Source: Chrysomallon squamiferum (Eukaryota > Animalia > Mollusca). From it: 64,000 nucleotides of DNA. The position numbers and the translations under genes are program-made. Position 1 is the first letter of the stretch. Every line of letters begins with the position of its first letter. This document shows, one piece after another, positions 1,985-57,459 of this stretch. The DNA lies in NCBI GenBank assembly GCA_012295275.1, contig CM022679.1, positions 20,770,001 through 20,834,000 of the forward strand. Reading direction: 5' to 3'. The notes under the pieces were generated by a model, which saw only the letters and a program-made list of their open reading frames with translations, was not told the DNA's origin and searched no databases.

Positions 1985-9980
<7,996 letters not shown>

Positions 9981-22447: not shown

Positions 22448-22815
22448 TTACTATTTTTGTAAGTTTTCACAAATGTCTTAATAAAATATAATGAAAGTCA
22501 TATTAATCACACTCGACGCAGATTATAGTCGACAGTAAAGGGAGATTACAATGTTAGATTCGTTTACCTAAAACTAATCTTAGTTAGTGAGGATTGAAAA
22601 AAAACCAAAGAAGCACATGAAGAATGATAAAGAATTAGATATAAATGGACATAGAAAAAGAAATAAAATATTTCGTTAATGATGCTTGTAGCTCGTTTTG
22701 AAACGTTAGGGTGGTCATTTGACATACCCAAATTCATTTACTTTATACACTCAGTGAAATTTGGTTTCAAATTGCGAAATATTTAGAGTTCTTTGGTGCT
22801 GATATAGATAAAAAG

Positions 22816-24501: not shown

Positions 24502-24600
<99 letters not shown>

Positions 24601-24952
24601 GGACAACTGAAACAGTAATTCGTCACGAGCAGAGGTGATTATTACATCAAATTGTCTAGACACCCAAATTCATATTGCTAGTTATTATTATGTAGTATTT
24701 ATATTCAATATTAATTAATGATCTACTTTTTACTTATATTTTATAAAAATATATATATATATATATACTGAATAAATAAGAAACAATTATCAACAGAAAA
24801 TCAACAACAGTTTTGAGAAATAGTTTGTAAATAACATATTTATTTACGTTTTATTTATTTTTATATTTATTTATTTATTAAAATGTATTTATTTATTCAT
24901 TTAAATATAGTTATTGTTGTTGTTGTTATATTATTGTTGTTATTATTACTAC

Positions 24953-24989
<37 letters not shown>

Positions 24990-25732
24990 GTTATTATTTC
25001 AAAACAGCAGGTGGACGTGCACGAGGCGATATGCACCATCACCCTGGCCGAGCTTCAGCAGAAGAAGAACATGATCAATTCTCAGGGCACACAGCTGCGT
25101 CTTATGAAGCACGTGCAGGAAAAGATGGAATGTGAAAACAGCGAACTGAAGGATAAAATCAAAGTGCTCAACGAAGAAATTAAATGTCTGAAAAGTTTTA
25201 CAAAACCTCAGGTAAAGCCTAAGATTCTACGTAAGATGTTGTTTTTATATATATATATATATATATACACTATGATGAGAATGGTTAGTTTCGCATCTTC
25301 TTCAATGTCATTCGGTTCTCTGAGGTATATATTATTTTTTTTTTTTTAAATATTGTATCCATTGATAAATGATTTTAAATATATAATGAAACTTTAATTC
25401 ACTGAAATTATTTGATATATTCGACATTAGTGAATTAAAACCAGTATTTTCAAGATAGTATACAAATTACTCGTTCACGACAACAATAATCTTCATAATT
25501 AATAGTAAGTAGTAGTAGCATTAGTAATATTTTTAGTAGTAAATAATAGTAGCAGGAGTAATATTAGTAAGTAGTAAATAGTGGTAGTAACAGCAATACA
25601 GTAATAATAATAAATAACACAAGCAGTTAATAAATAAATAACAAATAAATAATAACAGAATGATAAATAACAATAAACAAAATCAATAATAGTCAGTAAA
25701 TAGAGAAATGAAATAAATTTGTAAATAAGAAA

Positions 25733-25771
<39 letters not shown>

Positions 25772-27361
25772 ATACACTATATATAAATACACTGAAAAGT
25801 AAATAAGTATGTAAGTAATTAAATATATTAAAATATGTGAGGTTCACAATACTTTGCAGATTTCCGACAGGAAGGGAGATGTAAATAATGATTTAGACAG
25901 AATGCAGATGGAAAAGCGATGTCTTGAACTGCAGCTGGACCAGGCTCAGTCGGCGCTGTCTGCGGAAACTACGGCTAGGAAAACGGCTGAAGAAAAAATC
26001 AGGAATCTTTACAAAGAAGTCGATGAAATGAGGAAGGAAAAAGTATTTAGTTATTGGAGATTTTATCACCATTTTTGTTTTTGTTTTTTGAAGTTCAACA
26101 ACTTTGCAGCTTGTTGATAATCTGCATCACATAATTATGCGTTTTCCTGTCTAAAAGAGCCAGAGTTACTAATATAGTCCAGGAAAAAAGTTAAGACGTA
26201 CATAGAAAACTCCATTTTAGAAAAAGCTTGGAATGTATGCTTCCCTTGCAGTGAATTCAGTGGTTACATTATTTCTATAGAACACCATTCTGAAGATAGT
26301 CATAAATGATATAACATTGCGTTTACATGTTACCCATTATGTTGTGCTATTTTTAGAAGGTCCTTAACTGTTTTCCAGATGTATTAATTTTAAAAATATA
26401 ATCTTTGTGTTACGAATTTATTAAAATGTGTTTAGTTTTATTTGAAAATGATTTTTGTTTTAAAATATATGATTAAAATATAAAATTGTGTTCTAATCAT
26501 ATGCAAAAAACTAAAATTTGTATTGCAAGTTCGCCTTTAATTTTTTTTTCTCATACGCACACACACACACATACATACAAAACGACGCGCGCTGATATGC
26601 TTTAATAGTATTTTGAAAATGTAAACATTCTAAGTTTTTTGTTTACAGTTAAAATGTGAAGAGCGTATTCTAGAAATGGAGTCGAGGCAAAGAGACTCGT
26701 TATCTTACGTGGACAAACCGTACACCTCGGAGGTGAAAATAACATTAAACAACTTCAAATTAAAGTGTCCGAAAAATATAATCTCAAAACATTCTGCATA
26801 CTTCCAGGCTATGTTGTTTACTTACTTACTTACTTACTTCTTTAAAAGGTCATTGACTCTCGCTTCTAACCGTTTACTTACTTACATTCATATTTACTTA
26901 TTTATTTATTTTTGTCATCCAGTCGTAATTAATAATTAAATGTATAAACAAAAGTATAGAGTCAAAAATATCAGGCCATCTTAATTTGTCTGTTGTTACG
27001 ATTTTAAATCATAAAGTCAGACTAATTTTGTCTTAAATTTTGTATTTTTTTTTTTTTATTGCTATAATTTGATATTGATGATGAATGCCACGCAAAAATA
27101 TTTTAAAAATTAAAAGTTAAATATTGACTTGGTATATAAAGAATTTTATTAGACCATTTATTAATACTGCTACAAGTACAATTTAAACGTGTCCAGTCCA
27201 TCTTAAGTTAGTTAATATTTTTGTATGAACTTTATTTATTATTGAAAGTAGTCAAAAATTTAGCCTGCTGAATTTCAAATAAATTACACTTATGGAGGAA
27301 TGTTCATTCTGAAATATTAATAAACATAATACAAATGTATCTGAGCAACAGACCAATAATT

Positions 27362-27456
<95 letters not shown>

Positions 27457-29277
27457 GTTTCTCCTCAAACCCTAAATGCTATTTGTAGTTATTTACTTCC
27501 TGAACTATTTGTATTATGTTTTTAAAGCCTCTACCTATGTATGAGTATTCGCCAGAATCGAGTTTCCCTGGCCACAATGAAATGCTGCAGAATGAGAACA
27601 GGTGTTTGGAAATGTCAATTGAACAAATGAAATCTACAATAGTGGCTGAATCGCAGGCTCGCAGGATGGCGGAAGACAAAATTAAAGGTCTTTATGGAGA
27701 AATTGATGAACTCAGGAGAGAAAAGGTATTTCTAGTTTTTAGTAACTGTAAATACTTACACATAACTGATTTACTAGTTTACATTTTTAGTCAGTGCAAA
27801 TACGTTATTGATGCTACCATGGGACTGTTTATTTGTCAGTGTGCTGCCAGCTTTTGCTAATAAATAAGTGTAATAATTACAAAGAAAATATATTCCCTTT
27901 TCACAGAAAGGTAAAATACAATAAAAAATACTTTTAAAAACACTGAAAGACATCATGTTTTATTTTAACATGGTATTATCAGCGTTTTATTTATTCTTTA
28001 CATTTCTGATATATACAACCTCATGTGTTTGAAATATTTGTACAGTTAAACAAACTGATTTAAATTAAAGGTATAATGGTAAAGGCTGAATAGACTGTAA
28101 ATGTTTAAAGAAATATGTTCTTAGTTAATGGCATAGTAATAAACACTGAATATGTTATAAACATTACACTAAATCAAGTACGAAATTGTGTATGCTTTCT
28201 CATTATACTGGTCTATGTCTGCATTATCCAAAAATTGTTTTAGCTTAAGCTTGATGATCAAATCTTGGAGATGCAGACAAGACTGAGAATGGTCAGTGGA
28301 CAACTGAACATAGCTATTGACCTCATGCCATTAGATGAGATCCAGAAATTGCCATGTATGAGCATCTGCAAGAAAAGAAACAGTCTTAAATCAAATCAGG
28401 TTTGTATTAGGAGAGCATAGTTTCATACAGCAAAACCTACGTAGTTCAATCTCTTATTGTAGTCTGACAGGCAGTTACAGAATGATCCAGTTCAGTCTCC
28501 TGTTACAGTTAGACTGACATATAGAGAATGATCCAGTTTAGATTCGTGTTACAGCTAAACTGACATACAGAGAATGATCCAGTTTAGATTCTTGTTACAG
28601 CTAAACTGACATATAGAGAATGGTCCAGTTTAGATTCTTGTTACAGCTAAACTGACATATAGAGAATGTACCATTACAGACTCTAGTTACATATTGACTG
28701 ACATGTAGAGAATGATTCAGGCTTTAGACTAATGTTTTAGATTTGTGACAGCTGATGTATTTCTGTATTAAAAACGTTCTTGACCCAACTGCAGCACTAG
28801 CCTCATTTCCAATTTACAGTCTCAACATCCTTTCATCTACTTCACATAATCTGATGGATACATATTTGCTTTTGGCTTTAGCACCCTGAATAATATTTTG
28901 TATTAAAAGAACATAGATTGACTAAAAAAAAATCTTGTTTTAATGTGTGAACATTATTATTATTATTATTAATATTTTATCATACTACTGTTTAATTTTC
29001 AGGGGGATTTATTACCAAAAGCTGGAACATCAACCAAAAATGAAGTCTATTTTGAAGACACAAAAAGACACCAAGGTTATTAGCTTTTCAAATTAGTGTT
29101 CCATTGATTCTGAATAACCTTGGGTATTTCAAGTTTTTTAGGCAGAATGTGTATTGCTTGTAGATAGAAACCATATGAACTGGCTAAATTAAAAATATTA
29201 GTATTATAAAATTACCACTAGTAATTGCAGTGACTAAAAAAAAAAAAGAATGAAAAAAAAAAAAAAAGAAAAGGAAA

Positions 29278-29316
<39 letters not shown>

Positions 29317-31730
29317 AAATAGTAGTAATAATAATAAAAATATCTAAATAAGTAAATATAAAATAAATAAATAAAAAAATAAACAAAATAAGTAAATAAA
29401 TATATTAATAAATATTTCATCTATTTTCTATGCAAATCTGAGGTGTATACATTTATCATGGATATATAAATAATAATAATGAAAATGAATAATAAAGAAA
29501 TGAATAAATATATAACTACCTAACTAACTAACTAACTAACTAAATAAATAATAATAATAATAATAAAAATAATAAAATACTAATCTTTATTTAAAGATGT
29601 GTTATGTTGTTGCTGAACAATCATCCATTCTCTTTCATTCTTCCAGAAGGAAAATCAAAGTCAGCAAAAAATGGTGATGAAAAAATTGAGAAACTACAAG
29701 AGGAGAACATGCTACTTGAAAGATGTCTTCAGGAGACAAAATCAGTTCTTGCTGGGGAAACCATGGCACACAAACTAGCTGAAGAAAAAATAAAATCTCT
29801 GTCTGCTGAAATTGATGAACTGAAGAGAGAAAAAGTAAATTTAAAAACAAATTCAACGAAAATAATTAATTAGGTATACCTTTGGTGATAAAAAGAAGTA
29901 GTGTAAATATATTGGGATTTTTTAAAATTTTATTATAATTGTTTTTTTTTTTAAATTTTCAATGTAAATTAATAACAAATTTTAACATAAAAGAGTCCAG
30001 TTTTAAAAAAAAAATCTCAGCACATACATTATTTATTTTAAATTCTTTTTTTTGTACACTTTAAAATATTGCTATTTAATGGTAAAAAAAATATCTAGTG
30101 GACAAATTTTTGGTCATGGACAAATTATCTTGAGTGCATCGATAGACAAACTTCAGGTGGGCAAATCTTCTGTGGATGAATCAATATATGGAAATTTTAT
30201 TTTGTTTTATTTTATTTATTTATTTGTACTTTTCATATAATCTGGAAATGATTCATTTTGACAGCTGGTTAAGAAGGAAGGTCCTGATGATTTAGAAAAA
30301 CTACAAGAACAGAAGAGAGCTCTGGAAATTTCTCTGGAACAAACCAAGTGTCGACTGTCTGTTGAAGTTGCAGCTCGCAAGGAAGTAGAAGGAAAAATAA
30401 AATGTGTCCTGGGTGAGGTGGAGGAGCTCAGACAGAACAGGGTATTAAGTTTTGTATCTACTCCAGTGTCATCAGTTTTAGCCGTTCTCATAGTGATACT
30501 CCAGCTTGGTAATAAACCAAAGGGAATTTCCAAGGAGGCAATATAAATAATTAACTATATTTCCCTCTAATGACACTGGTAAATTAATATTCTTTATAGT
30601 TTAATGGACTGTCTGGAAATGAATAAAGGTTGCTAGTGATGATATGGAACAAAAACAATAGCAAACTGAAAAGGTTTGGAAACAAGTGATATAAATAAAG
30701 AATCGGAAATATTTTTAAACTGTTAAGGAAAATGATGAATCTTTTTACAGCTAAACGGAATGATCCAGTTTAGATTCTTGTTACAGCTAAACTGACATAT
30801 ATTTACTATTTACTATTTTCCTATTTACTATTTCAAAAAGAATACTATGTAATTTCCTGTCTTTGGTAGGTACAAATAAGAAAAAGTCTTGCAGTTAACT
30901 GGTTAAAAAAATTAAAAAAAAGGCTCAGTGTTCAGCCATTGGGTTAAGTCTGCAAAATAATCAAATAATAATAATAACACATGTACCAGTTATAAATATG
31001 CATGTTACCAATATCCACATAAGGTCGACTTGAAACCTTTTTTTGTTTTCTTTGCTTGTTGTTGTTTTTATTTGTTAAGATTTTTTTTTGTTTTTTCACC
31101 ACTTACATTTTTAAAATATTATTTGGGGTCAAGTATTTCTCAGAGGACAGAGGAAACTCACTTCATGAGCAAAGGACTTTTTCTTATATGCACCATTTCA
31201 CAGACTGGATAGTACATACCGCAGTGTTTGTTACTCCAGGTGTGGAGCACTGACTTGAACAAGAAATAGCTCAGTGGGTCCATCAACACACTACATATTA
31301 TAATAAATATACGTGTTTAAAATGAAAATCAGCACAATAAATTTAATATTCTGATAATTATTGTATTCTATTACCAGGTGAAAAGTGATGATTTGATACT
31401 GGAATTGCAGACACAGCTGAAGAGATCTGGGAATGAGTTGGTTCAGCAACCACAAACCTCTGTAGCAGAGACTGGTTTCAAGTCACAGCACCATGGTGAG
31501 GTTTCCTTGCCTCAGCGACACACAGACACGATTCTGAAATCCAAACAAGAGAGGATTAACATGCTGCAGGTATTATTTGTCAGTCTGCTCTGAAATAAGA
31601 GAGAATTTCTTAGCCGTTGTCAACATATTTAGTGTTTATTTATGGTGCTGTTTACAAACAGTTAAATACACTAGTTGTAATGTTTTCAGTTTTCTCCTTT
31701 TACATCATTGTTGGGTTTTTTTTTTAAATG

Positions 31731-31764
<34 letters not shown>

Positions 31765-33414
31765 TAATAATAATAGGATTGATATGTAATAACTTTTCAT
31801 GCAAAATATGAAAAAGCTTGTTGTTTCTTTCTTTCTTTCTTTCTTTTTTATTATTTAATTTTGTTTTACTTATTTGTTTACTTACAGTTTTATATAAATA
31901 TATATATATATATGCTTATTTATTTTATTTATTTTTATTTCAATTTATTTTTAATTAATTTCTTTATTCTTATTCTATATTTCATTTCTAATTATTTATT
32001 GTTCATTATATTTTTTTATTCTTATTCTATATTTCATTTCTAATTATTTATTGTTCATTATATTTTTTTATTTGATATTTATTTATTTATTTATTTTATT
32101 TATTTTTTTATCATTGTTAAACATTTTTAAATAATTTACTTTCAGACTGAAATATGTAAATTACAACAAGCCCTCTCCACTAGAAAGGATCTGGCTGACA
32201 TAAAGTTTGAGAAGAAAAGTTTGGAACTTGAACAAAAACTGTAATGTAGTCCCTTTCTTATAATTAATGTGTAATTTTGTTAAATTTAACAACATTTATG
32301 ATGGAAAAGACTACCAGATGAAACTGACATTTTTTGAAATTTTAATTAAACTGTATATGTTTTAGTTGGGTTTTTTTCAAATTTTCTTTATACCTTTTAC
32401 AAATTATAATACTGTTTTAAAACACATATTTGTAACAATTCACTTTGTAGCCTGAATTAAAAGAACATAAAATTACTCTTTACACAAAGAAATACTGAAA
32501 TTTTAAATTCAGCCATGTTTATTATCAGTGATAAGGATCAGCAGAAAATAGAACATATAAAGATGGAACTGGCTTTGAGGAACAAAGAAAATGCCAAGGT
32601 TTTTATTTTGTTTTTTTTGTCATTTTGTTTTTCTTCTCACATTTTGCCATTTATTTTCCTATAATTTAATTCTAGCCATAAAGCAAAGTATTTCCTGTTT
32701 TACTTTGGTTTATCAATTTAATTATTCCATCAGTGGATATTCTGTGTTAGTGTTTCTCTGTGTGTTTTGTTTCATTTTTTTTTTTTTATCAGAGGCTGGA
32801 ATTCTAAGTTAAATAGAATTATTTCAACATTAAACTGAATTTCGGGACTGGATCCAAAATTTTTAGAAAGGGAGAACTACATTGTTGTGGATATATGTTT
32901 TAAGAAGAAACACTTTTACTAAGAAAAAAAGGAAGAAAAAAACATTTCAACGATAAAATAAATGAATAAAAATAACAATAGGGGAGAATAGAGAAAACCA
33001 AGAACAACTCATGTGAACACCCCCCCCCAGCAGCACTGTTTACACATTAAAATTAATTAATTTTATCTTGGTTAATTAGATTACTTTTCACTGATATTGA
33101 ATATTGAAATTTCAGCTGAAAGAAGAATTGGATAAGCTGAAACAACTTCAAGTGCCAGGTAGATCAAAAGAGCCCCATCAAACTTCACCAAGTTCTTCTG
33201 GTGAAATCAATTGTAAACCTAACAAAAGGTACACAGCCTATTTAAATATAAAGTCTTAATACATTTTGTAGCTTTTCAAATGAGTATTTGTTTACTGTGG
33301 CCCTTTTTGACTGGTAAAAAATTACAAAAACAAAGTAACACAGTAACAAACTCCAGACACTGGTAATACTCTTTTCATTGTAATTTTCAAACCTTTGCAA
33401 TGATATATTTAAAA

Positions 33415-33465
<51 letters not shown>

Positions 33466-35432
33466 CACATCTCATCAAATAGTTCTAAAGAAGTTCATTT
33501 AACCTGTCTTGCTATTTATTTTATAGTAAAAGTTTGAATGATTTGCCTTATTCTTATTTAACAGTCTTAGTAACCATTCTGTCTCAGTCAGAGATGTGGA
33601 TAAAACAGTGACAGAAAAAATAAAAATAAACATCGTCTTCTTTTGACATCTTTACCATAGATTCTGTGTTAATTTCAGGCCGGAGACATACAAACAGATC
33701 ATTGAACTGAGGTCAGAGGTCATGACAGAAAGGGCCATGCACAATGTCACCAAAAATGCACTAAATGATGTCGAAGACGAAATGTCTAACCTTCGAGCAA
33801 AGATGAAAATTTTGCGACCACCTATCACTGGAAGCAGCAAACTGTTAACTACTACACCTTTACAGAGATCCAGGTGAGTAACCATCACCTTGGCTTTTCA
33901 TCTAAATATATTTTAACACTAATAGAAGAAGGGAAGAAGAAATACTGTTGAACAATACACATGAATGTTTTTTTTTATAAAAATATAGATAGATGGATAG
34001 ACAGACAGATAGAGAGACAGACAGATAGATAGATAGATAGATAGATAGACAGATATGCAGATATGATGTGTAGATAAATGTCTGTATCTTCAGACAAAAA
34101 AATACGACTTTAAGTATAACATATATCACCTTCGCAGGAAAAAGATGATTTCTTAAGATCGTAATCAGTATTCCCCATGTGTGTATGTGTGTGTGTGTCA
34201 GTGTATATGGGTGCGTGTGCACCTATGTGTGCATGTGTATGTGTGTGCATGTAAAATATGGTTAAGAATAACACAGATAACAAATAAGATTCTAACTGCT
34301 GTGTGCAGGGCAAATATTTTCAGTTAGAACCAAGAACTGTTTTATAAGCTTCTTCCCAGAGATGGGAAATGCATGTATTTAGCATCACTTTTGCAAAATG
34401 CTTCATATTGCACTGGATACAAAGGTCAAAAGGCTGGTTGAGGATGGCTGATCATTCAATAAATTATGTTTTATGTCATTGATGAATCTCAGTAGCCAAT
34501 TTTTAACATAATGATAATTGATTTTTTTGTTTGAAATAAAAATTGAGAGTAAATTTATGTACATACATAAATTATAAGTAAGGGGTCTTCTGAATACTCA
34601 TTCATACATATTAATGAGAAGAAACATCTTTAGGAAGACCAATACTGATTTCGAGTAAATATCGGATTACTTCAGAAAAATTATTTTACAACTATATTGA
34701 AAGAAAATGATATATTTGTCTTTTTTTCTGTTTGCAACATTATGTTACAAGTAGATATTAATACGTAGATATATACAAACATAAGTAGATCCTGCTTACA
34801 TAGATTCATTCTGTTGATGCTGTGGCATATTGTTATGTCTTTGACACATTTCTGTAAGGTAGTGCCACTTTAAACTAGTGTGAGAACCAAACATAAGTTA
34901 ACAAAGGCCTCTGAAACAGAAAATAACACCTAAATATTAAAACATAAATTATTTACTTCCATAGTAAAACATAGAGATACATTTGGTTGTTATTGTTGTT
35001 TCTGTGTGTATTTTCCAGTGTTAATGAGATATGTTGTTTGTGATGCTGTTTTTTCAGTATTGATGAATGCAGTTTTGTTGTTCTTGTTGTTCCTGTGTAT
35101 TGTTGATGCTATTATTATAATTTTTTTTTTTTTTTTCAGTTCTAATGACAAACTTGTCTTTTTTCAGTAATCCCAAATTACGAACTGAAAAGATCAATGA
35201 ACTGATTGCGATCTCACAAGCGCGAGCCAAACAATTTCTGCCTTATGATCTCACTAACAAAACGTTTAACAACAACAGTCATGTTAACCAAAAGTTCATT
35301 ACCAGCTTAAAGCTAGAAGGGTTAGCAAAAAATGACATTTCACAGATTGATGACTGCTCACTTCGTCACAGTGGCCCCATATATTTAGCCACACGGAAAA
35401 CGAGATCGGAATACTTTTGGCAATTTTCTTAG
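22816..35432 (+). CDS. Large uncharacterised coiled-coil protein with acidic low-complexity N-terminus, 15 exons, ~1158 aa
   Basis: Exons 22816-24102, 25011-25211, 25860-26042, 26649-26732, 27528-27725, 28244-28399, 29003-29075, 29647-29834, 30265-30441, 31378-31569, 32146-32240, 32529-32598, 33116-33228, 33679-33873, 35168-35432. All are GT-AG and phase-consistent (3477 nt), with heptad-rich E/K/Q/L sequence. Some acceptors are ambiguous (25008 vs 25011, 27528, 35168). Confidence 0.75.
28440..28750. repeat. 46-bp intronic minisatellite (~6 copies) with an internal hairpin
   Basis: AGAATG recurs at 28479, 28525, 28571, 28617, 28663 and 28709. The unit contains CAGTTTAG-N13-CTAAACTG. A further ~1.3 units lie at 30746-30800. 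Confidence 0.9.
31125..31290 (-). mobile_element. Nin-domain-type SINE fragment
   Basis: TTATATGCACCATTTCACAGACTGGATAGTACATACC...GTGGAGCACTG..TTGAACAAGAAATAGCTCAGTGGGTCCA resembles the reverse complement of the molluscan Nin-SINE core (recognised from memory, not searched). Confidence 0.65.
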
Positions 35433-36902: not shown

Positions 36903-37870
36903 TAAACTAATTAGTGTTAGCTAATGTGCTAGCAAGATAAGATCACAGTTGAACTCTGGCCAATGATAGGACAATTTCTTAGATAACTGTTATAACAGAC
37001 AAAAGTAATGTTCATAGCATGACTTTGGAATTTATAAATATATCTAAAGACTAGATTTCACCGATGAATAGGAATGAACTTAAAAATGGGAAATTAGTAT
37101 TAAGTAATATTAGATTTGTTTTTCTTTTGGTTCAAGTATTAACGCAATTGCTTACTGATAATGAGAATATGAGTTTAGCATTATAATATATTTGTGTATT
37201 TATAAAATCATTTTGTATGTGGGATATTCACAGAAATCTCTTTAATTACTATATTCATACATTTACATTACTTTGATATATGTTCTTTGACTTCTATTTG
37301 ATTCGATGTTTATTTTTATTCTCCTTCATATATAAATACATTTTAAAAATTATATATAGATATAATTTATTAATTATGATTTTAGCTACGGCTGAGTAAT
37401 TTCATACAGTTATCGTGGGTTTTTATTTTTTAAGGAAGATACAAATATCAAAGGACTTCGATCGAACTATTTCTTTTAATAAAGCCTGAAGCAATAGACT
37501 GAAATTAGAAGAATTTCCCTTACGTTTCAAATTACTAACATAAATTTTTTATTTTTATCATTTTACTGGTTTTTCCATTGACATTTTAATTTATTTATTT
37601 ATTACTATTATGATTTTATTATGTCGCTTCTAACAGGAAACGTGTTTTTGCCATCGCCGGAAGTTGAGAACGATTTGAACAGGGTTTAGGGGTAAACCAC
37701 ACATTAGATAAACCACACATTTGTAAAGGCGTATGCACAGAGATTACATTTACTAATAAAAGTTTTGTACTTTTTATTTTTTAATATTAGTAACAGTTGT
37801 TGATAACAGAAAATTACAAACTGAAGATTCCGAACATCACCTCATACGAAAACTGTGACAGATGATTTAA

Positions 37871-37899
37871 TTCTCAGAATTTGATCTACTTTCGATTTC
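37871..37899 (+). promoter_or_regulatory. GAS (TTCTCAGAA) + IRF-E/ISRE (ACTTTCGATTTC) composite upstream of PARP copy A
   Basis: Matches TTCN3GAA and TTTCN2TTTC, 76 bp before the ATG. ETS site CCGGAAGT at 37657, kB-like AGAATTTCCC at 37510 and tandem AACCACA at ~37695-37717. Confidence 0.6.
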
Positions 37900-37974
37900 A
37901 ATAAAGTGTTTCCGATATATGATTCGATATAAAATCATGGAAAACTAGAATTGGAATACTATTGAGATATCATA

Positions 37975-38449
37975 ATGTCGACGGAAAGCGAACAAATAGA
38001 AGAACCGACAATCTGTATTCCTCATCTGAGAGGCAAATGCAAATTTGGATCTTCCTGTCGTTCTGAGCACAAGGCAGGAATTTACCAGTGGCAATGGTTG
38101 GAAGATGATGATTCGGAATGGACTGATTTTAATCAAGCTGACAACATTAGAATAGAGAAAATCTTTAGTCAACCGGATAAATCTTGGTGCACTGTAAAAA
38201 TTGGGTATAATATTTAATTTAATTTTATACATATATACAGCACTTAAATGATTAACCAAAAAAGAAAAAATCCTTGTATGCATGAGGTTGTTTTTATTCA
38301 AACGTCATTAAAAATGATTTTTGGAAATTGTTCTTACAAGCTGTTAGTATTAATGAAAGCTTAGTATTTTTCATTTTTTAAAAGCAAATGAGAAACCGAA
38401 ACAATTATTATTGTTATTGTTATGTTACTTTATTTTATTTATTTATTTA

Positions 38450-38537: not shown

Positions 38538-41219
38538 TTTGTTCTTGTTTATTCAGGAACATTTAGCTAACAGTTTACTATGTGTGATGTAAGATTTCCT
38601 CAGTCAGTTGTTTTGTAGCTGTATTATTTTATTTCTGTACTTATTATTAGCAAAGACAGGTTTTCCATTAAAAATAAAATAATTACTTCTGACTATAAAA
38701 AACCAGCATATTCTAACCATTTATTCAGAGCAACAAAGGTACATTTAAAATAAAATATTTATTCAAATGTACTTTTTCAGTGGCATTGTAACAAAAATTT
38801 ATTTTGAATCAATGACTGCCAGTGGAGGAGATGAAATTCGTATTCGAAGATTGACAACAATTTCTTCTGCAATAGCACCTCCTTCCATTCAAAGATGGAC
38901 AACAGTCTGGCATTGGTACTGGCAGGATGAGAATGGAGAGTGGAAATATTATGGTGATCCAGTAAGTAGATTAAAAAATATTAGTTATATTAAGTCATCC
39001 TTCAGTGACATAATTAATTTAAGATAGACATTGTATGAAGGAAGTATAATTATGTTTCTACTCTTTATTTACTCACCAGTTCTCACTGAAAATATTTATC
39101 CTGTTGTTACTGAATAGTCACTAATTAAAGAAGTTAATACAAGTATTTTGTTAGCAGAATCAAATCAGAACACACATTATTATTTAATGTACATAAAGAT
39201 TTTTTTTTTTTTACTTTATACTTAAAGGATATAAAGGGTTTGAAAGCAGATCTTGATAGTGACAAGATTGAGAGAGAATATCAAAAGAATCCAGATTCTC
39301 AGTTTGATTTTAAAAAGGGACGCTTCACATATGCTCTGTCATTCACTGAAATGAAACAAATAAACTGTAAAACAAACAAAAAACGCAATATTCGGCGCAG
39401 AACAACTTACTTCCATCCACAAAATACTGAGAGAAGGTACATTTAAAATAGCAAATATAAACACTTAAGTCTAGAAATTCTTACCAAGTATTTCAATCAT
39501 TGTTACTGATAAACTCACATTTGTAAAGTGATACAAAAAATCTTAACCACTGATTATAAAATGATTATACTAATACTGTTGCAAAATTCTAAAGCTGTTT
39601 ATTTCATAAGGGTTTTCAGGTGTTATTTTCATTTCATATTTTACCAATAAACAAACTCTTTAGAAATCAAGTTATTGTAGATCTCAAGGAACTATTGTTT
39701 CTAAACATGTAACAAATTAGTCAAATCTGCTTCAATGTAAATTTAATTGTTTTGTATCTTTAATATTCTGATTGTGATTTACTTTCAGAACTGTGGATGA
39801 TGTTGATGATGGTCAGTTGAAGTGTGCTGTACCAAAAGAATGGAAAGTAAGTAAAAAAGATGTGATTGAACATTATCAAGTGAAACAGGTGTGTGAAATA
39901 GTTACTTCAGTACAGTTAATTATGGGCTTCATTTTCATTTAATATCCATCATGAAATGAATCCTTTTTAAAATAGAACCAGCCATGAGTATAAAGTTATT
40001 TTTATATTTCTATTTTAAAGGTGAATTATCCAACAGTATAAGGTTATTCTGATATCAATTTAAACCTCTGTTTTAATACTGAACCAGTCAATGGTATAAC
40101 ATTAATCTAAATTAAGATTATACTTTAGTCTTAATACTGAACTGGATAAATATATAGTTATTCTTATATTTCTGTTTTAATATAAAGTTATTCTGAACTG
40201 ATGATAGATTTCTTTTCAATAATGAACCAGCAAACAATATAACAGAAAGATAAACTTGAATAAAAATGATATATGGGTAGAAATCACAATATAACAGGTT
40301 TTTTTTTCTAGAAACCTATATGATTTCAGATTTCATGCTTTAATAATTCATCATATTATTCTTCTTTTTATCCCCTTCAGTTGAATTCTGAAACCTTTAA
40401 GCATTACACTATGGTACCTGCCTGATTCAAAAGCTCTATCATTCATGATGAAATAACACAAAATCATAATTCTTTGTAGGATCAGCCAGAACATTACAGA
40501 TCAGGTGAAAGATGTTATTCAAGATATCAGTATGCAATGAAATATCCGGATGAAAGTGAAATTGATTTTCAACCTGAAATAAGAACCACCACAACACCTA
40601 CTAAATCAGGTGCTATGAGTGAGCCTGGCAGAAAACCAAGAAAGAAAAAAACTAGTGGAAAACAGCTGTCAACAATCTGCATTAATAACCTCAGAGGCAA
40701 ATGCAAATTTGGATCTTCCTGTTATTCTGAGCACAAGTCAGGAATTTACCAGTGGCAGTGGAAGGCAGACACTGATCTGGAATGGACTGATTTTAATGAC
40801 GACAACAACATTGCAATAGAGAAAATCTTTAGTCAACCAGATAATTCTGTGTGCTCTGTAAAAATAGGGTACATTATTTGATTTACTTCTATAAATATAT
40901 ACAGCAATTAAGTGAAGAGGCTTGTAAGCCAAGGCTTCTTTTTATATTGTTTATTTATTTATTTATTTATTTATTTATTTTGTTGTTGTTGTTGTTGTTT
41001 GCTTTTTAAATACAAGATCATTAAACATGATTCATGGAAACTGTTCTTACAAGCTGTTCAACAAAATATTTATAGGTATATTTATTAATGAAAGTCTCAT
41101 ACTTGTCATTTTTTAAAAACACCCTTTTGAAATTTAAAAATATATATTTTGTTTGATTAATAAGTACACATCAGAAGCAAATAAGAAACCTAGAAAATTA
41201 TTATTATTTTCATGTATTA

Positions 41220-41268
<49 letters not shown>

Positions 41269-44200
41269 ATTTTTATTAATTTATTCTAACCATAGCAGAG
41301 GAAAATGCAGCTATCAGTTTGCTATGTATGATGTAAAAGGTTGTATTCATTTATTTTCTAGCTGTATTATTTTACTTCTGTACTTATTTTTAGCAAAGAC
41401 AGGTTTTCCATTAAAATAATTAAATAATAACTTCAAAGTATAAAAATCAGCATATTTTAACCATTTATTCTGAGCAACAAAGGTATATTTAAAATGAAGT
41501 ATTTATTCAACTGTAATTTTTCAGTGACATTGTAACAAAAATTTATTTTGAATCAATGACTGCCAGTGGGGTAGATGAAATTCTTATTCAAAGGTTGACA
41601 ACAATTTCTTCTGCAATAGCACCTCCTTCCATTCAAAAGTGGACAACAGTCTGGCATTGGTACTGGCAGGATGAGAATGGAAAGTGGAAAGAATATGGTG
41701 AACCAGTAAGTAGATAAAATAAATTAATTATTTTAAGTCATCCTTTAGTGAGATTATTAATTTTCAGATACTGATTTAATTTAAGACAGACTTTGTACAA
41801 AGGAAATATAATTATACTTCTACTATTCATTTACTCACCAATCTTCACTGAAAACATTTATCCTGTTGCTACTGAAAACTCTGTAGATTAAAGAACTTAA
41901 AACCAGTATTTTATTAGCAGAATCAATCAGAACACACTTATTATTTAATGTACTCACAAGTTGTTGTTTTAAATTATTATTCTTAAAGGATGTCAAGGGT
42001 TTGAAAACAGATCTTGATAGTGACAAGATTGAGAAAGAATATCAAAAGAACCCAGATGCTGAGTTTGATTTTAAAAAGGGACGCTTCACATATGTTATGT
42101 CATTCACTGAAATGAAACAAATAAACTATAAAACAAACTACAAACGCAAAGTTCGGCGCAGAACAGCTTATCCTGATCCAAAAAATACTGACAGAAGGTA
42201 CATTTAAAATAGCAAATATAAACACCATCAAATTCTTACCAAATATTTAAGTCATTGTTACTGATTCACTCACATTTTTTAAATGTTATCCATTGATTAT
42301 ATAGTGATTATACTAACACTGTCAGAAAATTTTAAAGTTGTTTATTTCATAAGGGTTTTCAGGTGTTATTTTCATGTCATATTTTACTAATAAAGAAACT
42401 CTTTAGAAATCAAATTATTTTAGAATCACAAGGAACTATTTTCTAAACATGTAACAAATTTAATGTGACAAATTAGTCAAAATGTTTCAGTGTTAATTTG
42501 TTTTGTATCTTTAATATTCTCATCCTGATTTACTTTCAGAACTATGGATGATGTTGCTGATGGCCAGTTGAAGTGTGCTGTGCCAAAAGAATGGAAAGTA
42601 ACATCAGAAGATGTTATTGAGCATTATCAAGTGAAACAGGTGTGTGAAATAATTACTTCAGTACAGTTAATTATGGGCTTCATTTCCATTTAATACACAT
42701 CATGAAATAAATCTTTTTAAAAATAGAACCAGCCATCAGTATAAAATTATTCTTATATTTCTGTTTTAAAACTGTATTAGTCAATAGTACAAAGTTGCTC
42801 TTATATTCCTGTTGTTGAAGGTGAATTAGTCATCAGTGTAAAGTTACTATATTTCTGTTTTAAAGCTGTATTAGTCAACAGTATAAAGTTATTTTTATAT
42901 TTCTGTTTTAAAGGTGAATTAGTTATTCTGATTTCAGTTTAAACCTCTGTTTTAATACTGAACCAGTCAACAGTTTAACTTTATTCTAAACTAAGATTAT
43001 ACTTCAGTCTTAATACTCAGCCAACCAAATATATAAAGTTATTCTTATATTTCTGTTTTATTATAAAGTTATTCTTTTTACCTCCCTCAGTTGAATTCTG
43101 AAATGTGTAAGCATCACACTATGGTACCTGCCCCATCCAAAAGCTTTATCTGTGTTATGAACATATGGTATAATACTATTTTTTACAGTTTAGAATTATT
43201 ATTGCAATTGGACTTGTGAAGTCAGAGCAAGCACTGTTTTTCTGACAACACAAAAAGAAACTATAGAGCAAATTGATCCATCATGTGTGCAGTGATGTTG
43301 TGACTGTAGGAAAATGCTATTTTCATCTGGAAACCTTCCTTTATTATACTTTATTATTAATTAAGTATGGGATTGCAAATAACAAATCAAACATAACCTG
43401 AACATATAGAGAATGAAATTTACATTATTTCTTGTTATCACTGAGGCTATACTTTATTGACATTGGTATCTCCTGTCAAATATTTAGACAAAGTCTTTAG
43501 AGTGCTGCTTTTATCTGCACTATACAGATAAGCCGGTACAAGGCATGTTTGCGATTAATTCAGTTTTGAGATCAATTTGAATTGCACAGTTTAGATGTGA
43601 AACATCAAAAACTGAATAGTTATCAAAAAAGAAAGAGAATGATGAAAAGTGGATTATTTTAAATTGCAAATTATTGAAAATGATTGTATTTAAATATTTA
43701 TGACAATTTGCATTTTGTAATCATTCATTTATAAACATCTGAGTATTTATAACGAAGCACATCATGCGAATTGTATGGATTTTTGTTATTATTTTATTTT
43801 TTAATTTTTTTTATTTATTTCTGATATTTTCAGGTTGACAAGCACAGCCAAGAGTTCAAGGAAATTAACAGTCTTTTTCGTGAGACAATGTCTCAAAACA
43901 TTAAAAAACTGCAGAGAATTGAAAATGGAGAATTGTGGAGCAACTACTGTCAGTAAGTCTACTTTCTCTATAGTGAACATTTTACTACAGATTGCTGCTT
44001 TCTTCGTACTAAGACAATATTGTATGTTTGATGTTTATGTAGTTTTTTTTTTTTTGTGTTTTGTCTACTGTGTACAACTAAGGACAGGGGATCAGTCCTT
44101 GTTAATGTACACAAATCACATAATTTCCTGTCTTATCCAGTTGTCCATGACTCATTTATACATGACTGTACTTTGTACTTTTATGCCTGGGGAAATAAGT

Positions 44201-44899
44201 ATATAAAATATTATTTCCTCCTAATGAAATAAAAAATAAATAAATGAAATAAAATAAATAATAATAATAATAATAAAAAGAATAAAAAATGTGTAATTGA
44301 CTTGACACTGTGCAACTGTAAATTAACAGAATATTGTTAAATAAAAACATTTCTTTCATTTTCAACTATTATTTTTAATTTTTTTTTTAATCTTTTCTGT
44401 ACCTTAAATTTCAATAATTTAATAAAAATGGTTAAAATGTCTCCTCATAAAATCATTAATTATTATAATAAAATTATTTTTACTCTTTAACAGTAAAAAG
44501 ACTGTTATGAAAAGGAAACTGGGTAAAGTGGAGGAAAGGCAGTTATTTCATGGTACGGCAAAGGAAAACATCGAAGCAATCTGTCATCAGGGGTTTGATT
44601 TTCGCTTTAATGGAAAAGCAGTAGGGACCCTCTATGGAAAAGGCAGCTATTTTGCAACCGAGGCTTCTTATTCTGATTCTTATACTGACTGCAAAATGAT
44701 GTTTGTGGCCAAAGTTCTGGTTGGTGAATTTGTCGAAGGTAATGGGTCATACGTGCGGCCTCCACCCAAAGATGATTCAAAACCTCATGGAGATTTGTTT
44801 GATAGCTGTGTTGACAACACAATAGACCCCAAAATCTTTGTCATATTTGATTTAATCCAAGTTTATCCACAATACCTAATTAAATATTGCAAACAATAA
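37975..44899 (+). CDS. PARP12/ZC3HAV1-like mono-ADP-ribosyltransferase, probable A+B chimera: CCCH-WWE-WWE-linker-CCCH-WWE-WWE-PARP, 10 exons, ~707 aa
   Basis: Exons 37975-38204, 38781-38961, 39228-39436, 39789-39888, 40480-40868, 41525-41705, 41989-42197, 42540-42639, 43834-43952, 44494-44899 form an open frame of 2124 nt. CCCH motif CIPHLRGKCKFGSSCRSEH; WWE motifs YQWQW...EW.DF and WHWYWQDENG.WK.YG; catalytic QLFHGT...GKGSYFA...KIFVIF...YPQYLI (H-Y-I triad). The alternative is a truncated copy A plus a promoterless copy B starting at ATG 40537. Confidence 0.78.
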
Positions 44900-46537
44900 T
44901 TTGTGGTAATCTAGCTGCAGAAGTCACCTACACATAAACAGAGTTTCTTGATCAGGAAAATATTAAACAGAAAAACATTAAATTTCAGCTTATATTATAA
45001 GAATAACTTTAAAAACTAAACATGTTTGATGTTTCATCAAATTGGATGATTGGTTTTTCGCCTGTTTTGTTTTGTTATTTTGCTAGAGATATATTATTTA
45101 GCCTGCTTTAACGTTTTCTTTTATTACTAAATACAGATTTATGCAAATGTTTCATATTGGTTTTTTAAATATGTACTGTCTGTAAATTTGAATTTAATTA
45201 TATATCTTTACCTAATGTGTGTGTATGTATTTGTGAATAACAACACATTTTAAACATTTTACTGTTGTACCTGTTCAGTGTTACTTAATAACATTTATAA
45301 TTTTAAATATGGTCAAAATATTCTTTGCTACCTTTAGGACAATTTACTGTAATCTAAATTTAGCTTTATAGAAACATGTCTTCAATGTCTGTATAATAGA
45401 AGCTTCATCAAAACATAAAATAAATATACAAATAAAATGGTATCGTAGTTCTGTGAGAAATGGTGGAAAAAATCCATCTTCTCCCATCCAACTAACTACA
45501 GACAAAGAGCTTCAATACTTTCAATACAAAATCTTTCTTTTTATCTTAACAACATATTTGATAATACATAGTATAAAAGATTCAGATAACAGTTAATTTT
45601 GTCATATAATTAGTGAAGAGTTAATAAACTTGTTTTGCTTATGTAAACATGTTTTGACATTTTGGAACACTGTTATAAACTGGGTATTTGTGAGAATAAA
45701 GTGAGACGAAATAAAATTCACAATTATTTTAAACAACCCAAATTATTCTGTAGAAGATAATATAATAAATTTAATATTGTTAATTGGCTAAATAGTGCAT
45801 ATATAAATCAAAAACAAAACACCCAAAACTACCTTTAACTAAATTCCAAATTTTCAGAACAGGTATTATTAAATAGATAAACAGAAAATTAATTTGAAGC
45901 CAAATCAAACATTTGGAAAAAACTCTAGGACTGAAATGTAAAAATATCAACCATGTTATAAAATTTACAGATAGAAATGAAGAAAATATATGTACAACTT
46001 TAAAAAACAATGAATACTATAATTTACTCATTTATGTATCTTAGAATATCGTATACTTTGTATTTATGGCTTAAATGTTTCTGACTAGGAATTACAACAT
46101 AATTAGGACTGATTTATAGATTTATACTATAGATAATCAGGAGTCCATGGATATGATCATTCACATTTTTTAGATGCACTGAACAGGTGTCTTTCCAAGA
46201 TAACTTAAATGATTGTTAACCTTTGCATTTCAACTAGGAGCAAAGTATATTAGTAAAATTAATTCCCAGCCCCCCATTCAGTGATGTTTGTGGATCAACA
46301 TTATTAGAAAAAAAAACCCAATCATTTAAGGCCAGACAATGGACAAGCATTTCTTTAAATTTCACTTATTTATTTATTAATACAGTTTGTGTGGGGAATA
46401 ATTAATGTATTTTATTAACTTTATTTTTTTAGTTTTGCAAAATTAATATCATCAAGTCCATGTCCCATAAAATTCAATGATTGTTTTAATTTTATTTTAA
46501 ATGTTGATAATTAAGAATGTAATTTAGTAATGTGATA

Positions 46538-47611: not shown

Positions 47612-49977
47612 TGTATATATTTGTAAATATTCTGCAGTGGTCAGCAGGGGTAAAACCTCTTTATAATACCCCCTGGAATGCTGCCATCCCTATTTACTGT
47701 CCCAAAAATGCTTGACCATCAATTGTCTGGATATACGTAAATTTACTTTGTTCTACCACCAGACACTATATTTCTGTCAACAAATCCAGCAAAACACTCT
47801 GATCTAAATACACAGGTAATTTACCTGATAAACTGCCTTCAGTTTGCAAAGTATTTTACGAAACAAATTATATTTTGCCACTTAATTGTTGATGTTGTTG
47901 GGGGATTTTTTGGTTGATTTTTTTAATTCTTGAATTCAGGAAATCAGCTCGGCATGGCACAACCAAAAATATTTGTAGTTTGGTACCTTTGATATTATCA
48001 GGTTGTTACAGTTAGCAGACTTAATATAAATTGCCAATTCTTCATTATTGTTTTGAAACTTTGAGAACTCTCCATCATAAACTGATATTGATACATACTG
48101 GCATATGTATTTAATGAAATAATATTGTTATGTCTGACACATTTCTTTAAGACAGGGCCACATTAAACTAGTGTGATACCCAAAACATATGTTTAAAAAG
48201 GCCCCTAAATCCGAAAAGTACACCTAAATATTAAAACATAAATTATTTACTTGCATAGTAAAACATTGCATTTTTTCCACTTGCTATAGAGACAGATAAT
48301 ACGACAGTCGTGTCTGATTCTTATTTAAATGTAGATGTCGGTTGTAGATATCAAACGTAACACAACTACAAAGTAAATGACGTTTACTATTTGCAAATTA
48401 GCTGACGATGCAGGAACTGTCACTTTCACACACACGTTCATGTTCAGTACTTATTAGAGTGAGCCTCTTTAGTTTATTTTGACTCATAGTGTAGGGCTGT
48501 TGTCATGTGTTTTCTACTGATTTGATCCCAGTCAGCCTTTGACATAAATAGAGTTTTGCAGAAAACCTAAATATGCAAAGTTTGGAACTGTTTTTCTGTC
48601 TTACACGATTAGAAAAGATGTTTTATTTAAACTTTTATTTTTTTTTTTTATATGCAAAAAAAAAAAAACAAACAACAAACAACAACAACAACAACAACCC
48701 AAAAACTATTTGATTTCTCATTTTTTTTTTTATGTGTTTCTGTGCACAGCCTATGACTAAAAGCTGACAGGTTATCAGATCTCCCTTTTTTTGTTCACCC
48801 CTTGAGATTTTTCTTGTTCCAGTCAATACTGTACAAATGGTTGCTTCTTATAAAATATTAATTCTCTTCTTATTAATTAGAAAGTGTACGCAGTAAAGTG
48901 ACAGAAGCAGATTTCATCCCCCACCCTCTCCTTTGTACAGACACTACTGTTTGGTTAGCTTCGAGTAATTACCGACTTTAGTATATATTGGTGAAACATG
49001 TGATTTACTTTATTTATTAAGTTAATAGACATGAAATAGGCTCGCTAATGTATGACCACTGTAGAAACACAACAAAACTCAAATTACTCTACTTACCATG
49101 GAATACACATACAATCGATGTCCACACTGGCTGTTGTGTGGAATTTCTGGTATTATATATTTTTAGTTTATGGTGGATCCTCTTAGAGATTAGTCTGTAT
49201 GTTAAAATTGTTCTTCACCTTTTAATAGCATTAAAATTTAATTGGCCGTACTCCCGACACCCAAATTGGAGGATTCCATGATAGCACAGCAACATGTAAA
49301 CTTTTACTTAAGCTGTTTATTTATTGGATGATTCTTTTTGTATTCTGCCTTTTTTCACACAAATTCATACAAATATTATTACTGTAATTATGCAATTAGA
49401 ATTTACGTTGAATTACAGTTTCAGTAAGAATTATTTTTTCGAAGATACCTTTATTAAAAAATATACAAATAACTATTTATTATTGAAACGACAAACAAAA
49501 ATACAAATACCATAATTTAGATGTTTGCGAAAGATGCAAATACAAAAGCAAAAGAAAAATCTTTAGTCTGACAAAGATGATAAAGTGTGATGGATTATTT
49601 GCATTCCTTAGTAAAAGAACTACTAACACGTTAATCCAAATTATGAAACATATTGTACATGAAAGAATTAGTCGTAAAGTTTCAGATTGATTCAACACAA
49701 GATAATTCATCCATTGGTCACTTGAGCATTAAAGAAATTGTTATCTGTGACTGACTGTTTTAAGCTGTGCCAGGTAATGTTGGTAAGAATATAGATTCAT
49801 TGATCTATTGACTGAAATATTAAAGCGTCATAAAATTGACCCCCAAAAATGTTTATCAGATAGCACAGGTGGCGCTGTAAGTTACCGTGGAATGGTTTAC
49901 AAAATAAAATTGTTGGTATGACGTAACAATACGTTCGTATATGCTCCTTTTCGTATAAATGAGCACAAATTTAAGAA

Positions 49978-50337
49978 TTTCTTTTCTTGCTGGTGTTTAT
50001 ACACGGCAATTTGTGAATCTCATCTAATGGCATGAGATCAACAGCTATGTTCAGTTGTCCACTGACCATTCTCACTCTTGTCTGCGTCTCCAAGATTTGA
50101 TCATCAAGCTTAAGCTAAAACTATTTTTGGATAATGCAGACATAGACCAGTGTAATGAGAAAGCATACACAATTTCTTACTTGATTTAGGGTAATGTCTA
50201 TAACGTATTCAGTGTTTATTACTATGCCATTAACTAAAACATATTTCTTTAAATATTTGCAGTCTATTCAGCCTTTATAGTTAACTCTTTAATTAAAACA
50301 GTATGTTTAATTGTACAGATATGTTTTACACATGAGG
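49978..50337 (-). pseudogene. Inverted copy of exon 6 plus upstream intron of the coiled-coil gene (source ~28019-28380)
   Basis: The reverse complement matches the source along its length, e.g. TTTTAGCTTAAGCTTGATGATCAAATCTTGGAGA and ATGGTCAGTGGACAACTGAACATAGCT. Confidence 0.92.
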
Positions 50338-51449
50338 ATGCCGTTATTTGTCATCGCGTATTTTTATGCGTTGGGTTTGGTAGATTCCGTTTATAACAAA
50401 GTTGAAGGAACAGACAAGAATAACGTTCATAGCAATACTTTGGAATTTGTAAATAAATCTAAAGACTAGATTTCACAGATGAAAATAAATAAAATCAAAA
50501 ATGAGTAACTGATGCTAATGTTAAGTAATATTAGATTTTACATTTTTTTTAACTTCAAGTATTAAAGCAATTGCTTAATGATGGTGAGAATATGAGTTTC
50601 AAGTACAAAAAATGTACTATTTATAGATACAGAGATAGAATGATAATTAGATAGAGAAGCCTTGAGATGGCATTAATGTGAAATGGGATGGAACACTGAA
50701 AATATAGGGATGCAGTACTCGTTTTATATGTATTTACATAGGTAAAAGCAGCACGCGAGTTTTGTGATATGCGTCAAAGTGTATTTGTGTATTTTTAAAA
50801 TCATTTTTTGTATGTGGGATATTCACAGAAATTTCTTTCATTACTGTATTCATACGTTTACATTACTTTGATAAATGTTTTTTGACGTCTATTTGATTCG
50901 ATGTTTATTTTTATTCTCCTTCAGTATATAAATACATTTAAAAATTATATTAGATATAATTTATTAGTTTTTTTTGTTTTTTTTTGTTTTGTTTGTTTGT
51001 TTTTTAATGAATATAAAAATATTAAAAGATTGAAGCAATAGACTGAAATTACAAGAATTTCCCTTACTTTTTAAATTACTAACATAAATTTTGTATCATT
51101 TTACTGGTATTTCCATAGGCTTGTAATTTTTATTTATTTGTTTCTGTATGATGTCGCTTTTAACAGGGAACTTGTTTGGGTTTTTTCACATGGTCGGAAG
51201 TTGAGAACGATTGGACATGATTTAGGGGACTAGGCACAGTCTAATTTATAAATAACTTTTGCGTCATTAGGTAAACCACACATTAGGTAAACCACACATT
51301 GGTAGAAGCGTATGCACAGAGATTACATTTATTAATAAAAGTTTTGTCATTTTTATTTTTTAATATTAGTCACAATCGTTGATAGCACAAAATCACCCAC
51401 ATATTGAAGATTCCCAGCTTTCACACGCGAACTGTGACAGATGATTTAA

Positions 51450-51556: not shown

Positions 51557-55483
<3,927 letters not shown>

Positions 55484-57212: not shown

Positions 57213-57459
57213 ACAGGTGGTGGAAAAATAAAATTATATATATTTTATTTTTAAAAGAAATTATATATTATAATTTCATTATTATTAAATAAAGTTAGTA
57301 ATAAATGTACAGCAGGCTCACTACATTTTGGAAGGAAAAAACGTAGAAATGATATAGCATAATATAATATGGTTTTTAATAGATTAGTTTATCTAGTATT
57401 AAATAAGCATGATATATATATATATATATATATTTCTATATATATATATTAATTTTCAG

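Follow-up and report, generated by a model that had tools for sequence, protein, structure and literature searches.

The window analysed here, a stretch of 64,000 nucleotides of Chrysomallon squamiferum DNA, contains a PARP12-type gene that is a chimera of two paralogs, and spliced transcripts join its two parts across a breakpoint at which the fourth intron of one paralog runs into the first exon of another. Taken as a whole, we regard it as quite probable that the product of this spliced chimera would place a doubled, predicted ADP-ribose reader ahead of a likely mono-transferase domain and, somewhat less firmly, that the gene relied at first on an acceptor of intronic origin.

Results

Four related PARP12-type units, A, B, C and D, lie in the window from ~35 kb onward, in animal DNA with a G+C content of 29%. 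The paralogs of the cluster are 80-95% identical, and in this window alone the four copies make up three genes; read depth suggests more copies, and summed contig depth gives five to eight copies of the linker, a figure that is inflated by contig overlaps. Among named proteins the nearest come from the gastropod Gigantopelta aegis and are PARP12-like (71-76% identity over the catalytic exon), and in a tree of middle modules, which contained no PARP7 orthologue, those of A, B and C group together in a single well-supported clade whose sister is a set of three Gigantopelta modules, two of the three proteins concerned being named PARP12-like. Because of this placement, the expansion of the cluster is, as read from the tree, local to this lineage. 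A single ZAP/PARP12-like gene is typical of invertebrates according to the available text of one survey (PMC8102003). Signs of further paralogs beyond the window were also seen, namely a different exon 4-5 junction in three of the four transcript runs (contigs on 39818-39885) and at least two additional intron-4 types among the DNA contigs over 40150-40440.

The copies are of two types. Copy D (61979-64000, plus strand, extending past the end of the window) is a long-type paralog whose exon 1 (61979-63099) carries the N-terminal four-finger RNA-binding domain (PF25261), and its 5′ end has the full PARP12 layout. Copies A and C are short types, in which the beginning of a D-like exon 1 is joined straight to finger 5. 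As C is also without the four fingers, their loss predates the fusion and occurred via a deletion common to A and C. The deletion, visible at 37975-38010 in A and 51557-51613 in C, lies within exon 1 and leaves the start codon and frame intact, with a few more codons gone in A than in C. Copy C (51557-55483, plus strand), a short-type paralog, is unfused. As assembled it carries two frameshifts: 2 nt are missing from exon 3 (after 52876) and exon 6 has an additional A (55282-55287), which reflect either a pseudogene or an assembly error.

Copies A and B are each incomplete, A being without catalytic exons and B without a start of its own. Two of four tested upstream motifs occur before A, C and D and the other two before A and C only, and none of the four precedes B exon 1; the upstream blocks and 5′ region of copy A (37658-37974, plus strand), which hold these shared motifs, are the likely promoter. 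Copy B is itself a mosaic, its exon 1 being nearest to D (90% versus 84-86%), the start of its exon 2 nearest to A (94%), and its exons 4-6 and 3′ region 92-97% like C, a pattern over 40480-46400 that suggests gene conversion or repeated crossovers.

Alignment bears out an earlier note on this DNA, made from the sequence alone, in its account of the join: intron 4 of A tracks its counterparts in B and C as far as 40440, and from 40448 the sequence tracks the middle of D exon 1 (from 62685), with 18 of 18 letters identical at 40448-40465. The fusion breakpoint between short-type intron 4 and long-type exon 1 is thereby placed at 40440-40448 (no strand assigned). The 5′ part is of short type (exon A1 is 96% like C1) and the 3′ part of long type (B1 is 90% like D1), which corresponds to the definition in the available text of PMC3449122 of a chimeric gene duplicate as one with parts from different genic donors. 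The same two points in C and D are 8978 nt apart, which serves as an estimate of the sequence lost. A five-letter microhomology is possible at the breakpoint, but it is one base off and is indistinguishable from chance.

Eleven sequencing runs were listed, nine of them containing the stretch, from three studies and in the form of contigs, and seven of the eleven were compared. Genomic contigs cross the breakpoint in all three genomic runs, one run per study: 40164-40555 (392 letters, 2 differences), 40150-40535 (386 letters, 6 differences) and 40164-40530 (365 letters, 3 differences and 2 gaps). Their depth is similar to that of B- and C-type introns, and over 40410-40510 no differences are listed in the three genomic runs, so that both stop codons described below are common to all. 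The best-matching run may be the window's own source; the other two studies are separate. Because the crossing contigs are present in every genomic run, the chimeric gene is real in DNA and the mis-assembly that the earlier note had named as a danger at 40440 is refuted.

The fused gene comprises ten exons on the plus strand. Exon A1 (37975-38204), of short type, holds the start codon, CCCH finger 5 and the first half of WWE1; A2 (38781-38961) holds the end of WWE1 and the start of WWE2, with the W611-equivalent codon at 38920, and is covered by transcript contigs in four of four runs; A3 (39228-39436) holds WWE2, with the Q668-equivalent codon at 39357, and its joint to exon 4 is found in two of four runs. 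Exon A4 as spliced (39789-39846) ends at the donor GTAAGT (39847-39852), and joints from 39846 are seen in all four runs; the remainder of the ancestral exon 4 (39847-39888), which runs to the weaker donor GTGTGT, is spliced out in the contigs seen. After the join, B1 (40480-40868) contains a linker remnant, CCCH finger 5 and the first half of WWE1 of the second module, B2 (41525-41705) the W611-equivalent codon at 41664, and B3 (41989-42197) WWE2 with the Q668-equivalent codon at 42118. The catalytic region begins in B4 (42540-42639), continues in B5 (43834-43952) and ends in the coding part of B6 (44494-44899), which encodes the PARP catalytic core (PF00644, E 8e-22; PARP12 structure 2pqf, E 4e-37) with its His at 44549, Tyr at 44648, Ile at 44834 and the stop at 44897-44899. 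All ten exons are open, as had been claimed, giving 707 aa through 39888 and 693 aa through 39846. That GTAAGT after 39846 is found in A only holds as well, the corresponding letters being GTAACA in B and GTAACT in C. Word-based searches with B1 and D exon 1 against longer proteins returned no matches among 50 and 974 candidates, which weakly suggests that the fused product is unannotated.

Four transcript-type runs (X6-X9) were compared over 38560-40940, with exon A1 and exons B2-B6 outside that stretch. X6 and X9 are recorded as RNA; X7 and X8, from one study, have no library on record and were labelled "DNA?" by guess, and are read here as RNA from their exon-only cover. A joint from 39846 to 40480, spanning a GT..AG intron, is present in two of the four exon-only runs (X7 at depth 23 and X8 at 18.7, the same study), and the runs on record as RNA (X6 and X9) show only the second fused version described below. 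None of the four runs lists a joint that starts at 39888; the bins left uncovered by these runs are 39920-40479 together with A's own letters 39851-39854, and because contigs of this kind drop rare forms, occasional use of the 39888 donor or the 40381 acceptor may go unseen. The donor in use is the A-specific one at 39846. Of the two junctions that the earlier note had offered as a check, 39888 or 39846 to 40480, the latter is the one present, and its reading of an exon-4 joint to 40480 therefore stands for the acceptor and fails for the donor, which it had put at 39888. As short contigs give joints, the full-length ten-exon message across A1-A4 and B1-B6 is inferred.

The acceptor at 40480 lies in former coding sequence. 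The TAG at 40477-40479 is both an in-frame stop in the frame of D and the end of the GT..AG intron, with the exon starting at 40480, as had been proposed; what the note had not remarked is that the pyrimidine count of this site, 11 of 20 letters, is the lowest of ten acceptors scored. Over the new acceptor (40466-40480, plus strand), joined to 39846 in two of four runs, nine of 15 letters differ from D, compared with none in the 18 letters before and six in the 60 after, and a cluster of changes this dense arose in 1.1% of shuffles (28 differences in 150 letters). The search for a local template that could explain the 15 changed letters gave as its best other match 13 of 15 at 9312 (minus strand), which is unconvincing. 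A back-splice from B4 to B1 was also considered as the source of the observed joint. Over the 30 letters before the A donor, B and C are just a single letter away, but such a back-splice is unlikely, as a donor at that place exists in A only.

A second joint from 39846 carries 62 letters ahead of 40482, in frame, and is found in three of the four runs (X6 at depth 80.4, X7 at 32 and X9 at 14.5). The best matches to the last 30 of those 62 letters, in the whole window and on both strands, are the three intron-4 copies, at 22 of 30 each, the next match scoring 18. These 30 letters end on A at 40442, which is 40381 + 61, and the letters of A after the breakpoint are shared, whereas B and C differ there; judged by these letters, the second version shares its breakpoint with the window's fused gene. 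With 30 of the 62 letters read, its exon is most simply taken to start at an acceptor equal to 40380/40381 and to have since lost 39 nt. In the window that acceptor (40355-40380, plus strand, 18 of 20 pyrimidines) is followed by a 99-nt former exon extension (40381-40479, plus strand), in frame with B1 and closed by TGA at 40423-40425 and by the TAG at 40477-40479. Among the ten acceptors scored it is the richest in pyrimidines and the TAG acceptor, 99 nt away, the poorest; as the weaker site is the one at 40480, some transcripts may enter at 40381 and be degraded before they can be seen. The same acceptor also exists in intron 4 of B and of C, where one RNA run shows only an unspliced paralog contig at depth 2.7. 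The introns 4 of B (43091-43216) and C (53648-53782) remain open for 42 and 45 codons after this dormant acceptor, whose use there would produce a truncated form that lacks the catalytic domain; the one RNA run compared over the homologous stretch showed no such use.

A DNA form matching the second version (40328 to 40482) is present in all three genomic runs, where both forms occur, each at approximately the depth of B- and C-type introns (85.6/113.7, 13.9/17.9 and 59.4/50). Against the window, the second DNA form shows 11 changed letters and a five-letter gap over 78 intron letters, and six changed letters over 74 exon letters, close to the 13-15% by which paralogous introns differ. Since the second fused version has diverged as far as paralogous introns have, the fusion is, on this comparison, not recent but about as old as the cluster, and to describe the gene as new goes too far.

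The earlier note had also suggested dN/dS on the exons of copy A, and this proved less than decisive: the ratio is 0.70 for A-B (Fisher p 0.18), 0.83 for A-C and 0.77 for B-C, none of them significantly below 1. Across 228 codons no frameshift separates A from B, where intron rates would predict 11.6; this comparison exaggerates the evidence for selection, in that AT-rich introns slip more and selection before the fusion is inseparable from selection after it.

The 693-aa product would contain two modules, at residues 13-196 and 292-475, followed by one PARP12-type catalytic domain; the linker between the modules is 91 aa long and rich in small and charged residues. The modules score 226 and 224 bits (against a profile whose seed includes both), their exons match the ZAP structure 7kzh, and the A and B modules are 80% identical. 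Both keep the C-C-C-H of the finger and the equivalents of ZAP W611, Y659, M666 and Q668, where the numbering of W611 and Q668 derives from the construct 498-699 and ZAP alignments, that of M666 from our own numbering, and the Y659 label from a literature listing. The catalytic domain scores 78 bits against PF00644 (cut-off 26.7), and its best solved match is human PARP12 (2pqf, E 4e-37). At the three catalytic motifs the His, Tyr and Ile are identical to PARP12, and there is no Glu; we take H-Y-I at these positions to be the catalytic triad and a mark of mono-transfer. The N-terminal four-finger RNA-binding domain is absent from A1. The domain plan put forward previously, a doubled reader before a catalytic domain and no RNA fingers, is thus supported by profile and structure matches, with the length corrected from ~707 to 693 aa. 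Such a protein would carry two ADP-ribose-binding modules before a domain that is likely to be a mono-ADP-ribosyltransferase.

Discussion

In the chimera, exons 1-4 of a finger-less copy run into the interior of a long-type copy's exon 1, and a deletion or unequal crossover of ~9 kb would have brought this about. Exon definition is such that an exon and donor placed behind a dormant acceptor can activate the latter. The join would have put a downstream exon and its donor behind the dormant intron-4 acceptor at 40380/40381 and so made it active, and the first rescue would then have been an open, in-frame exon with 20 intron-derived codons. The fused gene would subsequently have been duplicated, one copy keeping the old acceptor and losing 13 codons, and the window's copy gaining a new acceptor 99 nt downstream, with the skipped piece acquiring a stop. 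We consider it likely that the fused gene was duplicated and that the two copies then parted in their choice of acceptor, and we lean, somewhat less firmly, towards the intron-derived acceptor as the first rescue and the TAG acceptor as a later acquisition of this copy.

The earlier note had the gene rescued from the outset by the acceptor derived from coding sequence; on that order the second version would later have lost this acceptor through its 39-nt deletion and fallen back on the upstream site. We think this rather unlikely, and the proposal that the gene was rescued in this way probably does not describe its origin, given that the second version, as most simply read, uses the intron-derived 40380/40381. 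It is true that the stretch missing from the second version includes the TAG, so that the earlier state is unreadable there, and nine differences in 15 letters may represent one complex event. D is, moreover, the sole reference for the polarity of the acceptor changes, as in the nearest named relatives the linkers are too diverged. Nevertheless, were the coding-derived acceptor the first, the upstream one would have to be open and in frame by luck (99 nt, a chance of one in three), and a TAG site nine of 15 letters away from D is unlikely to have been ready at the moment of fusion. The second version, furthermore, reads ACA and B and C read CCA where the window reads TGA, which places the TGA stop later and in the window's copy only. 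With the intron-derived acceptor taken as the first, it is possible, and we offer this tentatively, that two living copies of one fused gene display successive stages in the birth of a splice site, a dormant intron acceptor having been switched on and 20 intron codons exonised, after which one copy built an acceptor from coding sequence and the first decayed, and that the resulting two-handed ADP-ribose reader-writer without RNA fingers was reached independently in this snail and in sea stars.

Other readings of the same data bear upon the reality of the gene, its mode of origin, its copy number and its worth to the organism. The 80-95% likeness of the paralogs, and the disagreement of the assembly with all three DNA runs at a few places (e.g. 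40214 and 40361), are what one might cite in favor of an assembly artefact; with the breakpoint crossed in three of three DNA runs this is exceedingly improbable, as is the reading of A and B as separate genes, against which stand spliced joints across the breakpoint, the want of catalytic exons in A and the want of upstream blocks in B. As to how the fusion came about, the earlier claim of a deletion between paralogs is sound as regards the fusion, and the deletion is one of two routes, given that B is itself a mosaic. In the other, an unequal crossover would have brought a long-type exon 1 with exons 2-4 into a short-type gene as an internal duplication, one of its two junctions being homologous and the other not, in the manner of haptoglobin 2. 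The mosaic nature of B (D-like exon 1, A-like start of exon 2, C-like exons 4-6 and 3′ region) is consistent with that route, which we rate as a real but minority possibility: a plain deletion with later gene conversion yields the same mosaic, and C followed by D is the very arrangement from which a 9.0-kb deletion gives A-B, exons 3-6 of D lying beyond the window.

The two fused versions might, alternatively, be diverged alleles of one locus, and the transcript runs do have the look of genotypes, X8 holding just the window's form, X6 and X9 just the second, and X7 both; X6 also has a downstream B1 contig with as many differences as that of X8. We nonetheless find alleles doubtful and a second gene likely, because the divergence approximates that of paralogous introns and both forms are found in every DNA run: the three runs come from three studies and hold each form at a depth close to that of the B- and C-type introns; in the intron piece the two forms are ~15% apart, whereas variants of the window's form differ by only 2-6 letters in ~370-390. 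Last, the chimera could be a functionless by-product of gene turnover in an unstable cluster, transcribed and spliced though it is, and dN/dS values not significantly below 1 and a neighbor, C, with two frameshifts in this assembly would fit such a view. We judge it improbable, as both fused versions are in frame by way of different acceptors, and 693 codons run without a stop or frameshift with pocket and catalytic residues kept.

What the product might do can be postulated by analogy with ZAP. In the available portions of PMC8853533 and PMC9720839, the substitutions W611A, Q668A and Q668R abolish binding by ZAP, and only the second WWE binds, at the chain end (PMC9720839, PMC8853533 and, likewise in part, PMC10450202). 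By extension, each WWE2 pocket of the fused protein would bind the end of an ADP-ribose chain, and two modules on a flexible 91-aa linker might engage two ends. The catalytic domain would thereby be held tighter on ADP-ribosylated assemblies, without RNA recognition, in a setting that is probably one of innate or stress responses.

Like PARP12 (ARTD12) and PARP13/ZAP, the fused product has the CCCH-WWE-WWE middle module (termed MZAP in the available text of PMC10450202) with the WWE2 pocket residues, and its catalytic core is closest to PARP12 among solved structures; unlike them, it has two middle modules and no N-terminal four-finger domain. The gene is a descendant of PARP12-type genes that lacks the layout of PARP12. 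It also resembles PARP7/TIPARP, which, as far as the accessible text of PMC10450202 describes it, has a middle module and catalytic domain without N-terminal fingers. PARP7 has one module only, however, and the finger-less state here comes from a local exon-1 deletion and probably not from PARP7 descent: A and C keep the beginning of the D-type exon 1, in a comparison whose module tree is without a PARP7 orthologue.

A survey of 186 fetched proteins (43, plus 143 new ones among the best 150 of 212 matches) found at least one near-complete module in 52 and more than one in three, and finger-less single-module proteins are common in the fetched set. None of five Gigantopelta proteins has two modules. 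A fish protein with two modules (P0001) has its catalytic domain between them; we regard it as two genes merged in annotation and have left it uncounted. Several middle modules ahead of one catalytic domain are found in PARP12-like proteins of sea stars, with three modules in Acanthaster planci LOC110977823 (P0109) and two in Asterias amurensis XP_071798571.1 (P0016), and so the doubled reader is not the only stacked one. The sea-star proteins, which are uncharacterised gene models, differ in having an independent and much older origin, their modules being 27-36% identical within one protein versus 80% here, and in retaining the N-terminal fingers in part. In P0109, P0187 and P0016 the modules farther from the catalytic domain were observed to be the more diverged.

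The chimera likewise has counterparts among fused genes. In Drosophila Sdic, according to the available text of PMC3395120, duplicated neighbors were fused by deletion, exon and intron sequence was recast as signals, and the fused gene was subsequently tandem-duplicated. The two genes combined in Sdic are unrelated, however, and the fusion acquired a promoter as well as a new first exon, whereas here two paralogs were combined, a domain was doubled and the new signals are splice sites. The haptoglobin 2 allele, as described in the accessible part of PMC4225596, is similar in that a module was doubled by an intragenic duplication from non-homologous crossing-over. It differs in that two alleles of one gene were involved, whereas the break here is inside an exon and a new acceptor was needed. 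Haptoglobin 2 uses existing splice sites. Our literature search, from which most subscription journals were excluded, found no publication describing stacked modules or this gene cluster.

The formation of chimeras within tandem clusters is thus a known route and stacked modules are known elsewhere, and the distinctive point is the presence of two splice solutions. The gene is an example of an in-exon break that still yields a coding gene, with both solutions comparable side by side. It also indicates that the ADP-ribose-reading module of ZAP/PARP12 can be stacked, in 80% identical copies here and as far older modules in sea stars, and raises the question of whether a second module brings higher affinity for ADP-ribose chains or an altered preference for chain length or branching.

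Other Features of the Window

At 1-1606 a RING finger frame is followed by an NHL-repeat frame, in the manner of a TRIM-NHL-like gene. Two cysteine-rich frames (16330-16581 and 19864-20187) look, in our estimation, like exons of a small three-finger protein of the Ly6/quiver type, with no Pfam match at E 0.01. A long multi-exon gene occupies 22723-35432, with repeated coiled-coil exons by eye, and its first open frame (469 aa) has no Pfam match. Between C and D, an isolated exon-like piece with an acceptor and donor (57447-57621) presumably resembles a copine C2 exon; it has no match in Pfam or among solved structures. Finally, two 376-nt segments (28016-28391 and 49969-50340) form an inverted repeat pair, 90% identical, which is probably a dispersed mobile element.
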